Shown here: positions 17,290 through 56,275 of the stretch, one piece after another
How the letters are laid out: every line of letters starts with the position of its first letter
Position numbering within the stretch: position 1 is the stretch's first letter
Virus record (IMG/VR): IMGVR_UViG_3300035180_001680
Strand: one strand, 5' to 3'
DNA: 64,000 bases
Source: a virus
Taxonomy: Duplodnaviria; Caudoviricetes
The notes under the pieces: generated by a model
What the model was told of the DNA's origin: nothing
What the model saw: only the letters and a program-made list of their open reading frames with translations
The model's database searches: none
Position numbers and translations under genes: made by a program

Positions 17290-18375
17290 GTCTGGCCCAT
17301 TGACACGATTTATCAAGAGCGTGTACTCTCTTTTTTCAAAGTGACAGTTCACAAGTATGCTTTAAACAATCTGCATTACCAACTCTCTAACCCCTTTTAC
17401 AAGGGAGGTTCTACACAGATTGTTTAAAGCAGACACCTCAATCGAGGCATTTACTTTGTATAAGGTTGAGATTAAACCTATACTATTGATACCTTCGAGA
17501 CATTATCTCATCACCTGCTACAGCTAGAGTTCTTCTCTTATCCACATAATCAGCTTTCGCACAACTATGTCTATCAACATGACTGCATTTTTTAAGTGGT
17601 TGCTTTTCCACCAACATGTAAAGCTACTCGATTATCTGTCTACCGCCAACCTTGCGAGCTGTACAAGAGCGCTAACTCTCTGCGTGCGACTTTCTTTCAA
17701 CATCCTCGACCTTGCGAGTTTTGGACGCCTTCATTACCTTGCGGCTGAAGGATTAAGCCATTTTCACTTTACACTGGAAACGTCTTTGCGTTTTATGTAA
17801 TATAATCCAAATTTATATGGGCTGTTAACCCTAACATTGTTAAACCTACCAAGAAGTGCGTTTCCAGTGGATTTCATACCTTTTGAGTATAAAAATACCA
17901 CACTCCTCATGTTTTTCATCTGCCGACTACTCAACCAGTTTTCAGGAATCGTGACACCCTATTACAGGTACCAAAACCCCCTCAACTTGCACAACAGCCC
18001 TTACTTGCGGGTTCGGACCACTGTACTACCCTTTACCTTTTGAGATGGCTAGTTTGTGTAGGCGTGAGGTCGGCACAACCCGTTACTCTCCAAATGCCCA
18101 AGTTCCCTGCAGAGCAGGCTTGTAAACATTCGTTCTTTCCACACCCCTAACTTCCCTCATATGACTACCGTTGGCGATAATCAGCTCCTTTCGGAGTAGG
18201 TCAGGCTTGCTTGTTTGTACCCCTTACAGGGCGCGGTAGTTGTAGGACCTACCGCTTTCACAACATCGCTGTTGGTTACTTTGCACAAGCGCGTAATTCT
18301 TTATCTTTTAAATTGTTTCTGATGAAACGTTCTGAATTCACAGAACTAATTAAAAGAGTGACTTTCTTAATACTA
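17290..18375 (-). ncRNA. large ornate ncRNA, GOLLD-like candidate
   Basis: ~1 kb with no credible CDS; many GCAA/GAAA-capped helices; long inverted repeats; own TTGACT-17-TAAAGT promoter; next to tRNAs. Confidence 0.55.
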
Positions 18376-18907: not shown

Positions 18908-18981
18908 GGTGCCCAATGTCGGAATCGAACCGACGGTCAAGTGTTTTAGAAGCACCTGCTTTACCATTAAGCCAATTGAGC
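18908..18981 (-). tRNA. amber suppressor tRNA(CTA)
   Basis: GCTCAAT-TG-GCTT..AAGC-A-GGTGC-TT-CTA-AA-ACACT-TGACC-GTCGG-TTCGATT-CCGAC-ATTGGGC-A-CC. Confidence 0.75.
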
Positions 18982-25856: not shown

Positions 25857-25905
25857 TGGTAGTCCTGGTGGGTAACGCTCCCACTACTTGCCCTCATCTA
25901 GGACC
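25857..25905 (-). ncRNA. minimal tRNA-like RNA (acceptor + T-arm + CCA only)
   Basis: GGTCCT/AGGACT stem, GTGGG-AGCGTTA-CCCAC, ACCA. Confidence 0.4.
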
Positions 25906-25957
25906 TTGGATGTTTATAAATCATCTTGTTTTCTTTAAACTACAGGACCAATTTGTT

Positions 25958-26042
25958 TGGTGTCTCGAGGGAGACTCGAACTCCCACCTTTCGGTCAATT
26001 GTTTTTGAAACAATTCAGTCTACCAATTCCCTGCACCGAGAC
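25958..26042 (-). tRNA. tRNA-Leu(CAA)
   Basis: ATTGT-TTCAAAA-ACAAT; variable arm CC-GAAA-GG; CCA. Confidence 0.85.
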
Positions 26043-26061
26043 AAATTTAAAACTTTAAAAC

Positions 26062-26152
26062 TGGCGGAAGGTACAGGAATCGAACCAGCGGCTCTACTTA
26101 GATGCCGGCGACTGCTTTCAAAACAGTTTGTCTGCCATAGACACTACCTTCC
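26062..26152 (-). tRNA. tRNA-Ser(TGA)
   Basis: ACTGT-TTTGAAA-GCAGT; long variable arm; G73; CCA. Confidence 0.88.
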
Positions 26153-26157
26153 ATATA

Positions 26158-26661
26158 TCACTTTCTGTGTTTAATACACCGAGTTGAAATCCAACCCCGG
26201 CCACCCACAGTTCCTCGTGCACCACACACTTCACAAATCATTTTACTTTGATATTCAGCAAACTGAATTGCTGAATATTGTTCTTCGGTTGCGTTAGAAA
26301 CATAAAACCGAAGAGTTCCAAATTTTTCTTTCACTTGCCGAGCAACAGGAATCGAAAGTTCTGCATCATCCATCCTTACTTTGGTTGCGGCAATCAACTC
26401 AGTTGTGATAATAGGGTTAAAATCACTTTCAGGACTACCTGGATACAAAAGTTGACCAAGGTTAGGCACCATACGATCGTATGTGTATTTCTCATAGATC
26501 CAATCGCTGCACAAAAATTCAGACAATTGATTAATAAGATTAAACCAACCATCTCCACAAGTAACCCCCCAACACATACAAGTTTCACTCATCGGAAGAG
26601 TGTGTTCTTTATATAGAGCAGGATACTTCTTAAAAAGATAATTTTGATAATGTCTGTTCAT
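26158..26661 (-). CDS. hypothetical phage protein inside tRNA cluster
   Basis: CGDGWFNLI, QVKEKFGTLRFY, CEVCG. Confidence 0.75.
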   Translation of the reverse strand: MNRHYQNYLFKKYPALYKEHTLPMSETCMCWGVTCGDGWFNLINQLSEFLCSDWIYEKYTYDRMVPNLGQLLYPGSPESDFNPIITTELIAATKVRMDDAELSIPVARQVKEKFGTLRFYVSNATEEQYSAIQFAEYQSKMICEVCGARGTVGGRGWISTRCIKHRK

Positions 26662-26718
26662 TTTTAGTCTCTCATCATATATTAAATGATATTTTAAAAT
26701 GACGAAAATGTCAACACA

Positions 26719-26805
26719 GGTCCGAGTGACCGGATTCGAACCGGTACGACCTTTCGGCCGGCAGGGTTTAAGCCTGCTGCATCTACCTAATTACACCACA
26801 CTCGT
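26719..26805 (-). tRNA. tRNA-Leu(TAA)
   Basis: GCAGG-CTTAAAC-CCTGC; long variable arm. Confidence 0.8.
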
Positions 26806-26810
26806 AATTT

Positions 26811-26894
26811 TGGTGCCCCAGACGGGAGTCAAACCCGTAAAAACCTGCGTTCTTAGCGCAGTATCTGTACCAATTTGCATTTGTCACCGGGGGC
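26811..26894 (-). tRNA. tRNA-Leu(AAG), copy 2
   Basis: CTGCG-CTAAGAA-CGCAG; near-duplicate of 27545-27627. Confidence 0.75.
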
Positions 26895-26906
26895 AATTTA
26901 ACTGTC

Positions 26907-26990
26907 TGGTCCGCAGGGAGGGATTCGAACCCACAAAAGCACTACCGTTTGAAGATAGGGGCTGTACCAATTTACCTAAGCCACCTGCGG
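26907..26990 (-). tRNA. tRNA-Leu(CAA)
   Basis: CTATC-TTCAAAC-GGTAG; CCA. Confidence 0.75.
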
Positions 26991-26995
26991 AAATA

Positions 26996-27086
26996 TGGCG
27001 GAGAGTACAGGAATCGAACCAGCGGCTCTACTTAGATGCCGGCGACTGCTTTCTAGGCAGTTTGTCCACCATGGACGCTACTCTCC
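26996..27086 (-). tRNA. tRNA-Ser(AGA)
   Basis: ACTGC-CTAGAAA-GCAGT; paralog of 26062-26152; G73; CCA. Confidence 0.85.
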
Positions 27087-27092
27087 AATATT

Positions 27093-27178
27093 TGGTCGGC
27101 AAGGGGGGATTCGAACCCAACCAAGAGCACTGGAACTTAAATCCAGGGGCTGTACCAATTTACCTAAGCCACTTGCCG
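27093..27178 (-). tRNA. tRNA-Leu(TAA)
   Basis: CTGGA-TTTAAGT-TCCAG; CCA. Confidence 0.75.
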
Positions 27179-27246
27179 AATAGTACCTAATGAGGGATTC
27201 AAACCCTCGCTCACCTTGTCATATAGATTAATGAGACAAACGTGGT

Positions 27247-27348
27247 TGGTGGCCACAGGATGGGAATTTAACCCACTTATCCAGAGGAATGGGAGCTACG
27301 CCTCGAGGAATCTCCCACAGTGCTGTTTCAACTACACCTATCTGCGCC
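27247..27348 (-). ncRNA. Tyr-like tRNA mimic with enlarged anticodon loop
   Basis: GTGGGAG/CTCCCAT arm enclosing 16 nt including CCTCGAGG; T-arm and ACCA. Confidence 0.45.
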
Positions 27349-27357
27349 ATAATATTT

Positions 27358-27430
27358 TGGAGCGGGCTATGAGATTCGAACTCACCTCTTTCGGCTTGGA
27401 AGGCCAAACGTACACCACTTGACAACCCGC
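27358..27430 (-). tRNA. tRNA-Gly(TCC)
   Basis: TTGGC-CTTCCAA-GCCGA; U73; CCA. Confidence 0.85.
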
Positions 27431-27439
27431 ATTAAATTT

Positions 27440-27535
27440 TGGAACCGTATTGCAGTCACGCTCTGCCTGTGTTGCACCTGGACTCCAAGTACAACTCTTA
27501 TTGATTCTTACCAGCACCTACTGGAATGATACGGT
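27440..27535 (-). ncRNA. tRNA mimic with CCA end and no usable anticodon loop
   Basis: ACCGTAT/ATACGGT-T-CCA; 11-bp arm with a 3-nt loop; GCAG-AGCGTGA-CTGC T-arm variant. Confidence 0.45.
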
Positions 27536-27544
27536 AATATTTTT

Positions 27545-27627
27545 TGGTGCCCCAGACGGGAGTCGAACCCGTAAAAACCTGCGTTCTTAGCGCAGTAGCT
27601 GTACCAATTTGCATTTGTCACCAGGGC
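27545..27627 (-). tRNA. tRNA-Leu(AAG), copy 1
   Basis: CTGCG-CTAAGAA-CGCAG; T-arm ACGGG-TTCGACT-CCCGT; CCA. Confidence 0.78.
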
Positions 27628-27760
27628 AATATATCATGTTTTAATCTTTATAAATGTTCACGTTCTAACTGTTTTCTTGTGTATCGAATTGTGGTTCGTT
27701 TAAATAACCAGATACCACCAACAAAGCGATTGTTCCAAATAACACACAACAGGACAAACT

Positions 27761-27837
27761 TGGTACCCAACCTCAGATTCGAACTGAGAACCACAACGTT
27801 CTAAGCGTTGCCGCGTTACCAATTAGCGTAGAAGGGT
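27761..27837 (-). tRNA. tRNA-Leu(TAG) with short variable loop
   Basis: CAACG-CTTAGAA-CGTTG; CCA. Confidence 0.75.
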
Positions 27838-27846
27838 ATTAAATTT

Positions 27847-27936
27847 TGGTGGGGAGAGGACAGAATCGAACTTCTTGCCACGAGGGACAGGGGCTACAAC
27901 CCTGCGCCAGGACCACCTAGCCTTATTTCACTCCCC
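27847..27936 (-). tRNA. tRNA-Tyr(GTA), divergent D-arm
   Basis: CAGGG-TTGTAGC-CCCTG; Tyr-type variable arm; CCA. Confidence 0.65.
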
Positions 27937-27943
27937 TTTATTT

Positions 27944-28029
27944 TGGAACGCTAGGTAGGATTTGCACCCACGTGGGCTTTCACCATCTGCTTTGCAGGCA
28001 GTTCCGTTCGTCTACTCCGGCACTAGCGC
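27944..28029 (-). tRNA. tRNA-Cys(GCA) with long variable arm
   Basis: ACTGC-CTGCAAA-GCAGA; U73; CCA. Confidence 0.8.
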
Positions 28030-28035
28030 ATAAAT

Positions 28036-28154
28036 TGGTGGGCATGGTAGGAATCGAACCTACTCACCACGAGGGAACGGATTTAGTCGAGAACACTGGA
28101 AAACCAATGCTCTCTAGTCAGTCCGCCGCGACTCTCCAACTTCGCCGCATGCCC
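28036..28154 (-). tRNA. tRNA-Tyr body with 33-nt hairpin insertion in the anticodon loop
   Basis: GCGGA/TCCGT stem encloses 40 nt; GAGAGCATTGG-TTTT-CCAGTGTTCTC hairpin; removing 28086-28118 gives CT-GTA-AA. Confidence 0.7.
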
Positions 28155-28190
28155 CAAAATATTTCAAATTTTTAAATAACAGTTTACAAC

Positions 28191-28222
28191 AAAAAAGCCT
28201 GGGTCTTTCGAGCCAGGCTTTC
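28191..28222 (-). terminator. intrinsic terminator of attenuator 2
   Basis: AAAGCCTGG-CTCGAAAGAC-CCAGGCTTTTTT. Confidence 0.85.
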
Positions 28223-28240
28223 TTTTGGGATTTTTTCTCT

Positions 28241-28336
28241 TTACATCTTGGTAATTCCCCAAACGGCGACCTGGCTCTTATCCAATATGGATAAAGACCC
28301 GAGTGATAGACAATAACCTAATCCGTTTGTGTTCAT
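28241..28336 (-). CDS. putative attenuator leader peptide 2: MNTNGLGYCLSLGSLSILDKSQVAVWGITKM
   Basis: AAAGGA RBS; residues 5-18 are 13/14 G,L,Y,C,S, the isotypes of the downstream tRNAs. Confidence 0.78.
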   Translation of the reverse strand: MNTNGLGYCLSLGSLSILDKSQVAVWGITKM

Positions 28337-28372
28337 TTTGTAAATCCTTTAAGTAATTAATTCAGTGTTATA

Positions 28373-28402
28373 AGTATATATGACTTATTTATAAAAGTCA
28401 AC
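28373..28402 (-). promoter_or_regulatory. sigma70-like promoter of tRNA operon 2
   Basis: TTGACT-TTTATAAATAAGTCATA-TATACT, identical to 4623-4652. Confidence 0.8.
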
Positions 28403-30892: not shown

Positions 30893-33151
30893 ATGAGAAT
30901 AGTAGAGGATGTTAAATTGGATTTTGGTGATGTGCTACTTATTCCAAAAAGGTCATCACTAACTTCACGCAAAGACGTGTCTCTTGAAAGGTCGTTCACA
31001 TTCAAATACTCTCACCAACAATGGACTGGTATTCCAATTATAGCGTCAAATATGGATGGAGTTGGAACTTTTGAAATGGCGGAACGATTTGCTGAATTTA
31101 AAATGATGGTAGCATTACATAAACATTATCCAGTAGTTCAACTTGTAGATTTTTATAAAAACAATCCCTCAATTGAACAATATATTTTTTATTCAGTTGG
31201 AACGTCTCAAAGTGACCTCGATAAGCTTGAACACTTCATCAAAATGTTTGGCAGACCTCCTTTAAATGTGTGTGTTGACGTTGCTAATGGGTATACAGAA
31301 ACTTTTGTGTCTACTGTAACTAAATTACGAGACAAATATCCAAACACAACTCTTCTTGTTGGTAACGTTGTTACACCTGAAATGGCAGAACAATTAGTAT
31401 TATCTGGTGCAGATATCATCAAGGTTGGAGTAGGCAGTGGGTGTTTAACGGGTGATGCTCGAATTTTAATGTCCAGTGGTGTTTATAAAAATATCAAAGA
31501 TGTTCGACCTGGGGATCGTATAATTACGAGTACTGGAGAACCAGCAACTGTGTTATCCGCTTATACCACAGGATATAAGAAAACAACACAGATAAAACAC
31601 GATCACTTCAACCTTCCGTTGAGACTAACTCCTGACCATCATTGTTACGTAGGTGATCTAAATTCTATTAGTATTACAACACTACAAAGCAAAGGGTATA
31701 AAAAGGCGCTGGAGGTTCCTACTCGTTTGGGAGAGGAAAAAATAAAATGGAAACCGGTGAGTGAAATACGACAAGATGTAGCTTTACTTCCCATCAATAT
31801 TAATTGGGAAACACCAGATAGTTTTCATATCGATATTTCAAGTTATTTTATACGAGAAGAGCATTTGGATAATTATAACACTATTGTTAAATCTGATTAC
31901 AACACTGGTTATGTGTTTGGTTTTTTTCTTGGAGATGGTACTTCAAGAAAAACAAAAGGAACCAACAGCAGAGGATTTTCAAGTTTTTCTGGAGGTGTTG
32001 AGTGGTATATAAACTCAAGAGATCAACATCATGTAGTTAAATTAATGTCTGCTATTGAGATGGTTACGGGTAAAATCCCAGTATGTTCTAATAAACGGAA
32101 AACGTTGACCACGATCACCTTGTATAGTAAACAGTGGGGAGAATTTTTCCAACAGTTTGGAAAGTTCCATGAAAAACATCTTCCAGACCAATTCATGTGC
32201 ACCAACACAGAATATTTGCAGGGATTGTATGATGGATTAGTTGATAGTGACGGCCACATTACAAAAGAAGGCCAGGTTAATTTTAACAACACGTCACAAC
32301 AACTCATGGAACTATTCAGCTGGATTACGTTTAACATATATGGGAGTTTCCCAAATATGTCAAACAACGGGAAACGGTCTTCATATCCTGTGCAACACCC
32401 CCGAAAAGATGGATATCGAAGTTTTCTGGCGACCTCTCACAAAAAAAGACATCTTTCACATTATCAGGTTATAAAAATACTTGAAATTGAAAACCCAACA
32501 GAGTGTGAGGTTCCCGTCTACGATTTAGAAATTGATCACCCAACCCATAGTTTCATTGCAAACAACATGATTGTTCACAATTCAGTTTGTACCACAAGGT
32601 TAGTGTCTGGAATTGGTTTTCCCCAGTTAAGTGCAATTATAGAATGTGCTGATGCTGTTCATGGATTAGGCGGAAGGTTGTGTTCCGATGGGGGATGTAA
32701 TACTCCTGGAGACTTTGCAAAAGCATTTGCAGGTGGCGCTGATTTTGTAATGAGTGGTGGAATGTTCGCTGGACACGACGAAGGTGGAGGTGAAGTAAGT
32801 TCGAAGTGGTATAAAACTAACGAAGTTGTAAAAGATATTGATGGTTCTTCTCTTGAGTGTTTAGAAGTAGAGCGTAAGTTTGTCCAATTCTATGGGATGA
32901 GTTCATCTACAGCAATGGAAGCTCACAGTGGAGGTTTGGCTGAATATCGCTCAAGTGAAGGACGAACAATCGAACTTCCATATCGAGGACCAGTTAAAGA
33001 TACAATTAACCATATTCTTGGTGGGGTTCGGAGTACGTGTACATATACAGGAAGTAAAACACTAAAGGAACTTTCAAAACGTGCAACGTTTATTAGAGTG
33101 AATAGCACTCACAATCGGGTGTATGAAGACATAACAACAAAGGTGAGATAA
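30893..33151 (+). CDS. guaC: GMP reductase containing an intein
   Basis: LDFGDVLLIPKRS, PIIASNMDGVG, CVDVANGY, KVGVGSG|SVCTTR, FYGMSS, LGGVRSTCTYTG. Confidence 0.9.
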   Translation: MRIVEDVKLDFGDVLLIPKRSSLTSRKDVSLERSFTFKYSHQQWTGIPIIASNMDGVGTFEMAERFAEFKMMVALHKHYPVVQLVDFYKNNPSIEQYIFYSVGTSQSDLDKLEHFIKMFGRPPLNVCVDVANGYTETFVSTVTKLRDKYPNTTLLVGNVVTPEMAEQLVLSGADIIKVGVGSGCLTGDARILMSSGVYKNIKDVRPGDRIITSTGEPATVLSAYTTGYKKTTQIKHDHFNLPLRLTPDHHCYVGDLNSISITTLQSKGYKKALEVPTRLGEEKIKWKPVSEIRQDVALLPININWETPDSFHIDISSYFIREEHLDNYNTIVKSDYNTGYVFGFFLGDGTSRKTKGTNSRGFSSFSGGVEWYINSRDQHHVVKLMSAIEMVTGKIPVCSNKRKTLTTITLYSKQWGEFFQQFGKFHEKHLPDQFMCTNTEYLQGLYDGLVDSDGHITKEGQVNFNNTSQQLMELFSWITFNIYGSFPNMSNNGKRSSYPVQHPRKDGYRSFLATSHKKRHLSHYQVIKILEIENPTECEVPVYDLEIDHPTHSFIANNMIVHNSVCTTRLVSGIGFPQLSAIIECADAVHGLGGRLCSDGGCNTPGDFAKAFAGGADFVMSGGMFAGHDEGGGEVSSKWYKTNEVVKDIDGSSLECLEVERKFVQFYGMSSSTAMEAHSGGLAEYRSSEGRTIELPYRGPVKDTINHILGGVRSTCTYTGSKTLKELSKRATFIRVNSTHNRVYEDITTKVR
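31442..32581 (+). mobile_element. intein with LAGLIDADG homing endonuclease (380 aa)
   Basis: starts CLTGDARILM, ends IVHN before Ser; LAGLIDADG-like FGFFLGDG and YDGLVDSDG. Confidence 0.92.
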
Positions 33152-55067: not shown

Positions 55068-55233
55068 TAAAGCACCTTCATAGCGACCAGTCTGGAGGGT
55101 TCACCTCAACAAAAGGTTAGCCTCTTTCTCCTGCCAGAGCGAACGATTATTGAAATTCCATGGCAGTGGCTATATCGTTTATCGTTCCTTGTACTACTCT
55201 ATTATATCAGACCTTCGCTATAAAGGCACTTTA
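55068..55233 (-). ncRNA. candidate ncRNA with ~18-bp closing stem
   Basis: AAAGTGCCTTTATAGCGA pairs with TCGCTATGAAGGTGCTTT; inner GAACGAT/ATCGTTC; possible CTGCCA/TGGCAG pseudoknot. Confidence 0.5.
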
Positions 55234-55242
55234 ATTTTATTT

Positions 55243-55318
55243 TGGAGCGGTGTGTCGGTCTCGAACCGACGGCCTCGAACTTGGAAGGATCGCGCTCTAC
55301 CTACTGAGCTAACACCGC
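55243..55318 (-). tRNA. tRNA-Gly(TCC)
   Basis: CGATC-CTTCCAA-GTTCG; U73; CCA. Confidence 0.9.
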
Positions 55319-55332
55319 AATAATACTATTTA

Positions 55333-55405
55333 TGGAGCAGGAAAGTTGGGATTGAACCAACTTCTTTAAGGTGGACCCCTAACGCATTCAATATGCTATT
55401 CCCGC
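55333..55405 (-). tRNA. divergent tRNA-Gly-like (TCC?)
   Basis: GCGGGAA acceptor, U73, CCA; atypical anticodon loop GGTCCAC. Confidence 0.5.
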
Positions 55406-55482
55406 AAAAAGGTATTTCAGATTCGGGGCGATGTTCCCGATAAACGCCTCAAATGAGTTTCTGAAATACACAAAAATGTATT

Positions 55483-55618
55483 TAGTAAAGAATGTAAGAG
55501 GAATCGAAACCTCCAACAGCGACGGTGCGCTGCCTGTAGCCTTGGGTAATTCGACTGGCCAATCTTATTACCTCACATTAGTTCTGGATTGCAGCCCAAA
55601 ACCTAACATTCTTTACTA
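55483..55618 (-). ncRNA. tRNA-mimic / Y-RNA-like candidate
   Basis: 13-bp terminal stem TAGTAAAGAATGT/ACATTCTTTACTA next to a T-loop-like TTTCGATT arm; own TTGACT-17-TAAAAT promoter. Confidence 0.5.
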
Positions 55619-55687
55619 CATACACATTTTATAGCAATCTATTTATAAAGTCAACAAAAAGTTTTGGTCTCTATATCCGGTAATCTT

Positions 55688-55722
55688 GTGAACTACCCAA
55701 TTGTTCAATGGGGGTAGTTCAC
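55688..55722. mobile_element. palindromic IS-end remnant
   Basis: GTGAACTACCC-AATTGTTCAATGG-GGGTAGTTCAC, same ends as 28486-28523 and the TnpB right end. Confidence 0.65.
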
Positions 55723-55723
55723 C

Positions 55724-55828
55724 TTAGATCATATTAATGGAATAAATGATGATCATAGATTAGAGAACTTGAGAACAGTTTGTCCTAAATGTGATTCATT
55801 ATTACCAACTTTTTGTTGTAAAAACTAA
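55724..55828 (+). pseudogene. HNH endonuclease C-terminal remnant
   Basis: LDHINGINDDHRLENLRTVCPKCDSLLPTF*, with no 5-prime part. Confidence 0.7.
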
Positions 55829-55839
55829 AAGTTAAAAAA

Positions 55840-56159
55840 TGGTGCCCCGAGCCAGATTTGAACTGGCACGCTCGAAAGCGAGGGATTTTAAGCGGTTGTG
55901 TCTCGAAGTTTCCTTCAAGCCCGGACTATCTCTTTACCTTCAACATTATTTGGTCAGGTAATGGGCGTTCAAAGCTGGTTATTAAGAGGACTAAACCTCT
56001 CCAGTAGTCTCTACACCTTCAAGTGATGTATCACTTGCTTGGCTCGCGATTGCCATTTTAAAGGCTCTCCCGAATTAACCCATAGTTTACTCAAAGTTTC
56101 CAATTGAGGGGGACTAGCGTCATGCGATCCCTTGTGTCTACCAATTTCACCATCGGGGC
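55840..56159 (-). tRNA. tRNA-Leu(TAA) interrupted by a group I intron
   Basis: 5-prime exon GCCCCGATGGTGAAATTGGTAGACACAAGGGA; 3-prime exon CTTAAAATCCCTCGC...GGGGCACCA. Confidence 0.88.
55893..56127 (-). other. group I self-splicing intron (~235 nt, no ORF)
   Basis: core elements AATTCGGGAGAGCC (P), AATCGCGAGCCAAG (Q), GTAGAGACTA (R), AAGAGATAGTCC (S); P3 ATGGG/CCCAT; terminal G. Confidence 0.85.
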
Positions 56160-56275
56160 ATTAAATTATAAAAGAACAGTCACACCAAAAACATTTACTT
56201 CTGAGTCATTCTTCTAACTCCTTCTTTACTGGGAGACTATTATATATTAAGTATCCCATAAAGTCAACAAAAATT

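Follow-up and report, generated by a model that had tools for sequence, protein, structure and literature searches.

We report that the 64,000-nucleotide window analysed here (the whole stretch studied, from the IMG/VR virus record IMGVR_UViG_3300035180_001680; Duplodnaviria, Caudoviricetes) carries, in front of a transfer RNA (tRNA) gene array on its minus strand, a unit (unit A) that quite probably constitutes a ribosome-mediated leader-peptide transcription attenuator with the phage tRNA operon as its output, acting as a homeostat of tRNA supply. On the minus strand the unit runs from a sigma-70-type promoter through a ribosome-binding site (RBS), a 31-codon open reading frame (ORF), an intrinsic terminator and an rrn-like boxA element to the tRNA genes. 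The initial annotation of the window had proposed an attenuator at this site, and what that interpretation predicts at the sequence level is found in unit A, in three paralogous cassettes of the same genome and in five cassettes of two relatives. Specifically, the anatomy, the codon/anticodon specificity, the alternative helices with their covariation and the conservation of the design are observed. In a search of the full-text literature, which did not cover subscription-only papers, we found no account of tRNA genes under the control of a leader peptide.

The window belongs to a 178,796-bp IMG/VR viral contig (G000; estimated completeness ≈52%). Its gene products include a jumbo-myovirus terminase, portal, tail sheath and DNA polymerase, and as judged from the terminase (≈50% identity) the Xanthomonas phages Xoo-sp13 and XacN1 are the closest cultured relatives. 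The cassettes are referred to as A (the unit in the window), B, C and D in G000, as A', B' and C' in the relative G001 and as b and c in the relative G004; positions are those of the window unless given as genome positions.

The leader reading frames and their tRNA arrays

Unit A comprises the following features:
28372-28401, minus strand: 30-bp promoter block common to all four G000 cassettes
28401-28373, minus strand: promoter TTGACT-17-TATACT, 10/12 match to the sigma-70 consensus
28345-28349, minus strand: Shine-Dalgarno (SD) sequence AAGGA, 8 nt 5' of the ATG, in the conserved start context TTTACAAAATG
28241-28336, minus strand: leader ORF MNTNGLGYCLSLGSLSILDKSQVAVWGITKM, 31 codons plus TAA
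28283-28324, minus strand: control codons 5-18, GGA TTA GGT TAT TGT CTA TCA CTC GGG TCT TTA TCC ATA TTG
28276-28304, minus strand: segment 1 and 1:2 hairpin, the small hairpin being ORF nt 40-61
28269-28277, minus strand: segment 2, antiterminator strand GAGCCAGGU, codons 20-23
28191-28224, minus strand: intrinsic terminator, folding at -18.6 kcal/mol within a longer A/U-extended stem
28218-28191, minus strand: terminator core, with 5' arm GCCUGGCUC (28218-28210), loop GAAA, 3' arm GACCCAGGC (28205-28197) and U6 (28196-28191)
28166-28180, minus strand: boxA-spacer-like element GTTATTTAAAAATTT between terminator A and the first tRNA, the weakest boxA copy
25857-28154, minus strand: the putatively controlled tRNA array, with the first tRNA starting from 28154

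A short RBS-led ORF lies directly 3' of the promoter in unit A and likewise in the eight other cassettes, and an SD-like motif precedes the ATG in 9/9 leaders. The leader position (28336-28241, minus strand) and all other coordinates and sequences of the initial annotation were correct, and recounting gave the same composition for residues 5-18, viz. Gly, Leu, Tyr, Cys or Ser at 13/14 positions, the odd one being Ile (codon ATA). The control codons thus defined are readable by the downstream tRNAs in 13 of 14 cases, while the tRNA fitting the ATA codon (anticodon TAT) was called at relaxed threshold. The leader therefore holds a run of regulatory codons related to the genes behind it, and the match is specific to its own array.

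The array was annotated using ARAGORN, Rfam and manual reading. It begins with Tyr(GTA, with a 33-nt insert), Cys(GCA), Tyr(GTA), Leu(TAG), Leu(AAG), Gly(TCC), Leu(TAA) and Ser(AGA), and continues with an 84-nt call 'Lys(CTT)', Leu(TAA), Ser(TGA), Leu(CAA) and Ile(TAT); a 167-amino-acid ORF (26661-26158) lies among these tRNAs. The second Tyr(GTA) and the anticodon of Leu(AAG) were read manually, the latter locus being flagged by ARAGORN at relaxed threshold without assignment and giving an Rfam match below threshold, and one Leu(TAA) together with Ile(TAT) came from ARAGORN at relaxed threshold; output at the 80% threshold was discarded as too noisy. ARAGORN calls and manual reading together bear out that leader A precedes a Tyr/Cys/Leu/Gly/Ser tRNA run, and the codon/anticodon pairs proposed earlier hold against them (TTA/TAA, TTG/CAA, CTA/TAG, CTC/AAG, TCA/TGA, TCT and TCC/AGA, GGA/TCC, TAT/GTA and TGT/GCA). 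Within the array (region 25857-27540, minus strand) there are also tRNA-like, CCA-ending stretches without ARAGORN or Rfam assignment, e.g. at 27530-27440 and 27345-27245. The insert of the first tRNA-Tyr(GTA) (28036-28154, minus strand) is a 33-nt anticodon-loop insertion folding as an 11-bp hairpin, and a 31-nt anticodon-loop insertion is present in a tRNA-Ser(CGA) outside the window (genome 66175-66290), both predicted in the ARAGORN intron mode; these inserts are far too short for group I introns.

The 30-mer promoter block occurs four times on one strand of G000, exactly at genome positions 37148, 60898 and 74195 and with one mismatch at 80155. Behind each copy come, in this order, an SD-led ORF (31-33 codons), a terminator of -18 kcal/mol that ends in a U-run, a boxA-like element and the tRNA genes. 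To score the match between leader and array we applied wobble rules and took the background from the codon usage in 76 long phage ORFs:
Cassette A: leader MNTNGLGYCLSLGSLSILDKSQVAVWGITKM; array Tyr, Cys, Tyr, Leu x5, Gly, Ser x2, Ile(TAT); own-array-readable codons 14/30, P = 0.0055 (background 24%)
Cassette B: leader MIFTTFFTAFTTPEAWHAPEMAVCALEEGWKN; array Pro x2, Ala, Glu, Phe, Thr, His, Thr, Trp, Met, Thr, Ser(CGA), Ala; 20/31, P = 4e-5
Cassette C: leader MFVTRQQQSISIIRRRQVRRDSDIIMSGGWV; array Gln x3, Asp x2, Arg x4, Val, Ile, Ser(GCT); 23/30, P = 9e-10
Cassette D: leader MFDSTKPIFINNVNVNNKRSHAEALTVEIKLII; array Val, Asn, Lys x3; 10/32, P = 0.03

Jointly the four arrays cover all 20 amino acids. 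When each leader was scored against the arrays of the others, 12/12 off-diagonal comparisons were non-significant or depleted, and on this ground a composition artefact of the phage codon usage was rejected. Moreover, among the 527 short ORFs of the genome, arrays B and C are matched only by their own leaders. Leader A samples 10/10 of the distinct anticodons assigned to its array (random mean 5.4, P = 0.001), and the four leaders together sample 32/36 distinct own-array anticodons where 19.0 are expected from random codons (P < 2e-4). The signal is mostly at the amino-acid level, and the codon-level excess beyond amino-acid identity is modest. This excess is driven mostly by unit C, where the Ser codons are AGT and fit Ser-GCT; the Ser codons of unit A are TCN and fit Ser-TGA and Ser-AGA, and for unit A, where the synonymous-codon test is weak, we do not claim selected codon choice beyond amino-acid identity. 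Leader C (genome 74382-74477, locus L003, outside the window) is the only one of the nine leaders with a TAG stop, and the phage has a tRNA with a CTA anticodon; speculatively, read-through of this TAG would take the ribosome into the terminator stem.

The element GTTMTTTAAMAATTT follows each G000 terminator and is also found behind B' and C' in G001 and behind G004 b, while the form in G004 c is one base longer; in G000 and G004 it lies ~10-70 nt after the terminators. It is nearly identical to the boxA-spacer of rrn operons, CACugcucuuuaacaauuua, and to lambda nutL, cgcucuuaaaaauuaa (PMC2724277, Table 1). In G001 the B' copy is 14/15 identical to the rrn sequence CTCTTTAACAATTTA and the C' copy, CGCTCTTTAAAAATTA, resembles lambda nutL. 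The match to the rrn and lambda sequences and the promoter-proximal position in an untranslated operon are as seen for boxA, and the elements probably recruit Nus factors for processive antitermination. A fifth tRNA group in the window (Met, Leu, Gly x2, Pro, Thr; 56351-54786) has neither a leader nor the conserved promoter. Its tRNA-Leu(TAA) gene is preceded by a boxA-like GTTCTTTTATAATTT and is interrupted by a group I intron (RF00028, 61.5 bits; 55902-56183, minus strand).

Alternative helices and the position of the ribosome

Segment 2 (28277-28269) pairs with the 5' arm of the terminator (28218-28210) through eight Watson-Crick pairs and one G.U pair, with a duplex energy of -17.5 kcal/mol that only 2/1000 dinucleotide shuffles equal; the 9-bp pairing of codons 20-23 described in the initial annotation is thereby confirmed. 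All G000 and G001 cassettes have a distal ORF segment that can pair with the terminator 5' arm (-13.5 to -19.1 kcal/mol). The shuffle ranks for A, B, C and D are 2, 60, 0 and 1 of 1000, and combining the approximate add-one shuffle P values (0.003, 0.061, 0.001 and 0.002) by Fisher's method gives 7e-7. Terminator A, a stem followed by U6 as in intrinsic terminators, ends ~35-36 nt before the first tRNA, and in a sigma-70-type scan no promoter-like site was found between it and the boxA element and tRNAs. From this it follows that the tRNA array must be fed by read-through from the leader promoter, and the lack of an intervening promoter in the scan is the strongest anatomical argument that the terminator would be a gate rather than an end.

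The small hairpin UCUUUAUCCA-UAU-UGGAUAAGA, which overlaps the control codons as noted earlier, is present and folds at -6.3 kcal/mol. When unit A is folded at full length, this hairpin grows to span nt 33-68 (≈-12 kcal/mol) and covers the whole antiterminator strand, not only its start: segment 2 is paired with codons 11-15 and the terminator is formed. The G001 orthologue A' has a hairpin of other sequence at the equivalent site, and the 1:2 hairpin of unit A may also act as a pause hairpin. The classic 1:2/2:3/3:4 layout claimed in the initial annotation is accordingly present in the full-length fold, but the 1:2 helix is weak, and 2:3 forms with or without it in RNA cut before the 3' arm.

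To follow the effect of the ribosome, the transcript was ended before the 3' arm and folded with a 28-nt footprint masked at each P-site codon. The antiterminator of unit A forms with the P site at codons 1-16 and 27-32 and is lost at codons 17-26. Because it is lost from codon 17, the cognate run (codons 5-18) ends where the ribosome starts to block antitermination, and the two boundaries coincide in 7/7 G000 and G001 cassettes; the distal leader codons are almost without cognate codons. The antiterminator excludes the terminator and stays free when the ribosome stalls on the control codons. These folds suggest that termination in the fast state would rely on the ribosome occupying segment 2 while the terminator arms are synthesised, and that the switch may depend more on this occupancy than on a strong 1:2 anti-antiterminator.

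No Rfam leader family was matched at gathering level, so that no membership in a curated leader family is assigned. Sub-threshold resemblance to Thr_leader (RF00506) and His_leader (RF00514) was seen for A (25.6 bits vs 55), C (27.1 vs 55) and D (29.8 vs 49).

Cassettes in related phages

Blastn against GenBank phages gave a 54-nt tRNA-Tyr as the sole match, and the promoter pattern had 0 matches in metagenome contigs. With a looser promoter pattern, one true relative was retrieved from IMG/VR (G001; IMGVR_UViG_3300020048_000168, 56 kb), while a second candidate, L011, was rejected as an unrelated chance match. A boxA scan of five further terminase relatives, mostly fragments, revealed no cassette-like site.

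G001 has three promoter copies and orthologues of cassettes A, B and C, in the order B, C, A as compared with A, B, C, D in G000, and the leader regions of the two phages are ~70% identical. Loss of the ORF from an orthologous leader with the tRNAs kept had been named beforehand as speaking against attenuation; A' keeps its ORF. In helix 2:3 of A/A' one G-C pair has become A-U, at a site that 3:4 leaves unpaired, and two further pairs are changed on one side only with pairing kept. C/C' show a three-way change (U to C in segment 2, A to G in the 5' arm and U to C in the 3' arm) through which both helices are kept, and the B/B' terminator has a compensatory change from G-C to A-U, with helix 2:3 gaining one mismatch but being longer. 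Among changed codons, those that are synonymous or stay within the amino-acid set of the array make up 24/28 in the control regions and 5/18 in the distal regions (Fisher P = 1.2e-4). A population variant from a different sediment metagenome differs by three nonsynonymous changes, at codons 24, 27 and 31; all of these are distal, and none lies in the control codons or stems. A functional micropeptide was considered as well and rejected; the distal residues drift, and it is the composition rather than the sequence that is conserved.

G004 is a complete, more distant phage of 350 kb (terminase ~55% identical) with two cassettes whose leaders are unrelated to those of G000:
G004 b: leader MFNHNVITVKAATNAIKNSQGVLRS; array Lys/Asn/Val/Ile/Thr/Ala; 15/24 codons match its own array vs 4-6 for other arrays
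G004 c: leader MQHFGQHHSEQLSLQWQGMSSLRSELCDYPRFDEPTTALCGGLAA; array His/Ser-GCT/Pro/Gln/Arg/Asp/Leu-GAG/Tyr/Glu/Cys/Phe/Gly; 32/44 match its own array vs 4-9 for other arrays
Since the G004 leaders differ along with their tRNA sets, leader content tracks array content across lineages.

The cultured jumbo phages XacN1 and Xoo-sp13 share the large one-strand tRNA clusters and a promoter with a boxA-like element 5' of part of the array. Unlike in G000, the boxA of XacN1 follows directly after the promoter at the site examined. Xoo-sp13 probably has the same promoter and boxA without a leader or terminator, as suggested by the near-identical flank at its single boxA match. On the sequences compared, the attenuator is an add-on of the G000/G001/G004 lineage.

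A predicted tRNA-supply switch and competing explanations

From the sequence we infer that the leader is translated, that read-through is conditional, what the signal is and how boxA functions. In the proposed mechanism, host sigma-70 polymerase would start at the conserved promoter and a ribosome would load on the 31-codon leader. With fast decoding of the Gly/Leu/Ser/Tyr/Cys/Ile(ATA) codons 5-18, the ribosome would be on or past segment 2 as the terminator arms emerge, such that the 3:4 hairpin with U6 could form and transcription would stop before the first tRNA. Slow decoding of any control codon, i.e. scarcity of the cognate aminoacyl-tRNA through host codon-usage mismatch, host shut-off or tRNA-cleaving defences, would stall the ribosome on segment 1, leave segment 2 free to pair with the 5' arm of the terminator and allow the polymerase to read through. 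This polymerase would then transcribe boxA (with probable recruitment of Nus factors) and the tRNA array, and the new tRNAs would speed up leader decoding and turn the operon off again, as in a negative-feedback homeostat. The four cassettes would in this way split the complete 20-amino-acid tRNA set into independently sensed blocks.

Known ideas on why phages carry tRNAs are that these compensate for codon usage, replace host tRNAs that have been degraded, or allow anticodon nucleases to be evaded. For giant phages at large we lean, with less confidence than for unit A itself, towards a scheme in which a block of tRNAs would be expressed only if ribosomes stalled on a test peptide made of the codons of that block, which would detect codon mismatch, host shut-off and tRNA-cleaving defences and answer them block by block, with the rrn-like boxA making the read-through complexes resistant to termination.

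A number of observations weigh against the attenuator. The six listed sequencing runs that contain the stretch are all DNA and none is recorded as RNA. Several array A tRNAs rest on manual or relaxed-threshold assignment, and the match of cassette D is weak (10/32). When the peptides were held fixed and synonymous codons redrawn, P was 0.02 for total matches and 0.09 for anticodon coverage, and for unit A alone it was 0.08-0.24, i.e. not significant. In ribosome-less RNA lacking the 3' arm the 2:3 pairing of unit A forms anyway, and the stop codon of unit A lies 8 codons past segment 2, so that a ribosome at the stop leaves segment 2 unmasked; together these two points imply that termination would need tight timing between transcription and translation, or the modest 1:2 helix. 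The G004 antiterminators were equalled in 101 and 164 of 1000 shuffles in a strict test and are thus not significant. XacN1, which was read directly, has promoter and boxA without leader or terminator at the single boxA site detected in its tRNA region, and the missing leader at the examined site in XacN1 and Xoo-sp13 implies that the cassette is dispensable.

Among the competing explanations, the one that survives best keeps the attenuator and changes the signal to classical amino-acid starvation, with uncharged Gly, Leu, Ser, Tyr or Cys tRNA being sensed instead of the size of the tRNA pool. A stalled ribosome cannot distinguish a missing from an uncharged tRNA, the anatomy of unit A fits equally well, and the leader-peptide attenuators known to us (trp, his, leu, thr, ilv and pheST) all respond to charging. 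Extra tRNA would, on the other hand, give no relief of an amino-acid shortage, so the output would not correct the signal, and a product-feedback loop would predict just such an exact split of 20 amino acids between leader/array pairs. New tRNA offsets the signal only where this signal is a shortage of tRNA; for this reason we favour the tRNA-pool homeostat and regard starvation sensing as improbable.

We find it very improbable that the unit is a small early gene or a short RNA that is not regulated and ends at a terminator of its own, the tRNAs being made by constitutive leak or from an unrecognised promoter and the codon match being incidental. The terminator is strong (-18.6 kcal/mol, U6), a sigma-70 scan would miss phage-specific promoters, the listed sequencing runs with the stretch are all DNA, and in G001 (L008; reverse complement 55221-56271) an ORF is inserted between the A' terminator and the exact boxA GTTCTTTAACAATTT that precedes the tRNAs. 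Such a gene does not account for nine cassettes in three phages each matching its own array only, for control codons that stay within the set while distal codons drift, or for antiterminator complementarity far beyond that of shuffles with compensatory changes; and a boxA placed ~10-70 nt after the terminator in G000 and G004 needs a transcription start upstream. Least probable of all is that leader translation controls Rho-dependent termination, polarity or transcript stability, with a stall uncoupling ribosome from polymerase and altering Rho access before boxA: the downstream genes are untranslated RNAs and hence natural Rho targets, and the boxA elements suggest that protection from Rho matters, but this would not require the covarying complementarity of segment 2 and terminator arm, has the opposite sign as stalling would give fewer tRNAs, and finds no C-rich rut-like stretch evident in the 25 nt between stop codon and terminator.

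As an attenuator, unit A is functionally of the multivalent ilv/thr type and resembles ilvGMEDA (Ile/Leu/Val), thr (Thr/Ile), trpL, hisL, leuL and pheL in its constitutive promoter, short SD-led ORF, multi-amino-acid regulatory codons, and exclusive 2:3 antiterminator and 3:4 terminator with a candidate 1:2 hairpin upstream, besides the weak Rfam resemblance given above. It differs from the enterobacterial attenuators in that the output is a tRNA array and not biosynthetic enzymes, such that the product would act directly on the sensor; in that the phage leaders would sense 5-9 amino acids each through many different synonymous codons; in that the unit A ORF runs through segment 2 before it stops; and in being phage-borne, in four parallel copies covering 20 amino acids, with boxA behind. 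With the pheST (pheM) attenuator and the T-box riboswitches of synthetase genes it shares the regulation of a translation component by the state of its cognate tRNA. However, pheM controls a synthetase and senses one amino acid, whereas in the phage cassettes the tRNAs themselves would be regulated; T-boxes bind uncharged tRNA directly without a ribosome, and the phage unit is without T-box structure according to Rfam. The boxA-like element is likened to the NusB/NusE site of rrn and lambda nut by sequence and, unlike these, precedes tRNA-only operons downstream of an attenuator.

If the homeostat is correct, the phage would measure decoding speed directly and make tRNAs on demand, which would support the notion that tRNA supply is limiting and variable during infection. 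Attenuation would extend from amino-acid and synthetase genes to tRNAs, in a direct product-feedback loop. The leaders would represent compact natural sensors of individual tRNA pools and would predict which tRNAs share one transcription unit, an aid in the annotation of uncultured jumbo phages.

Two further features of the window were recorded. A full-length GOLLD RNA (RF02032, 198.8 bits) is present at 17463-17908 on the minus strand, ~1 kb downstream of the tRNA with the CTA anticodon (amber-suppressor type, 18908-18981), and both are co-directional with array A. Finally, both ends of a 752-amino-acid ORF (30893-33151, plus strand) match XacN1 and Xoo-sp13 GMP reductase, the coverage being 49% in two pieces; the ~400-amino-acid insert between them is weakly like polymerase or intein-bearing regions and may represent an intein or an inserted domain.

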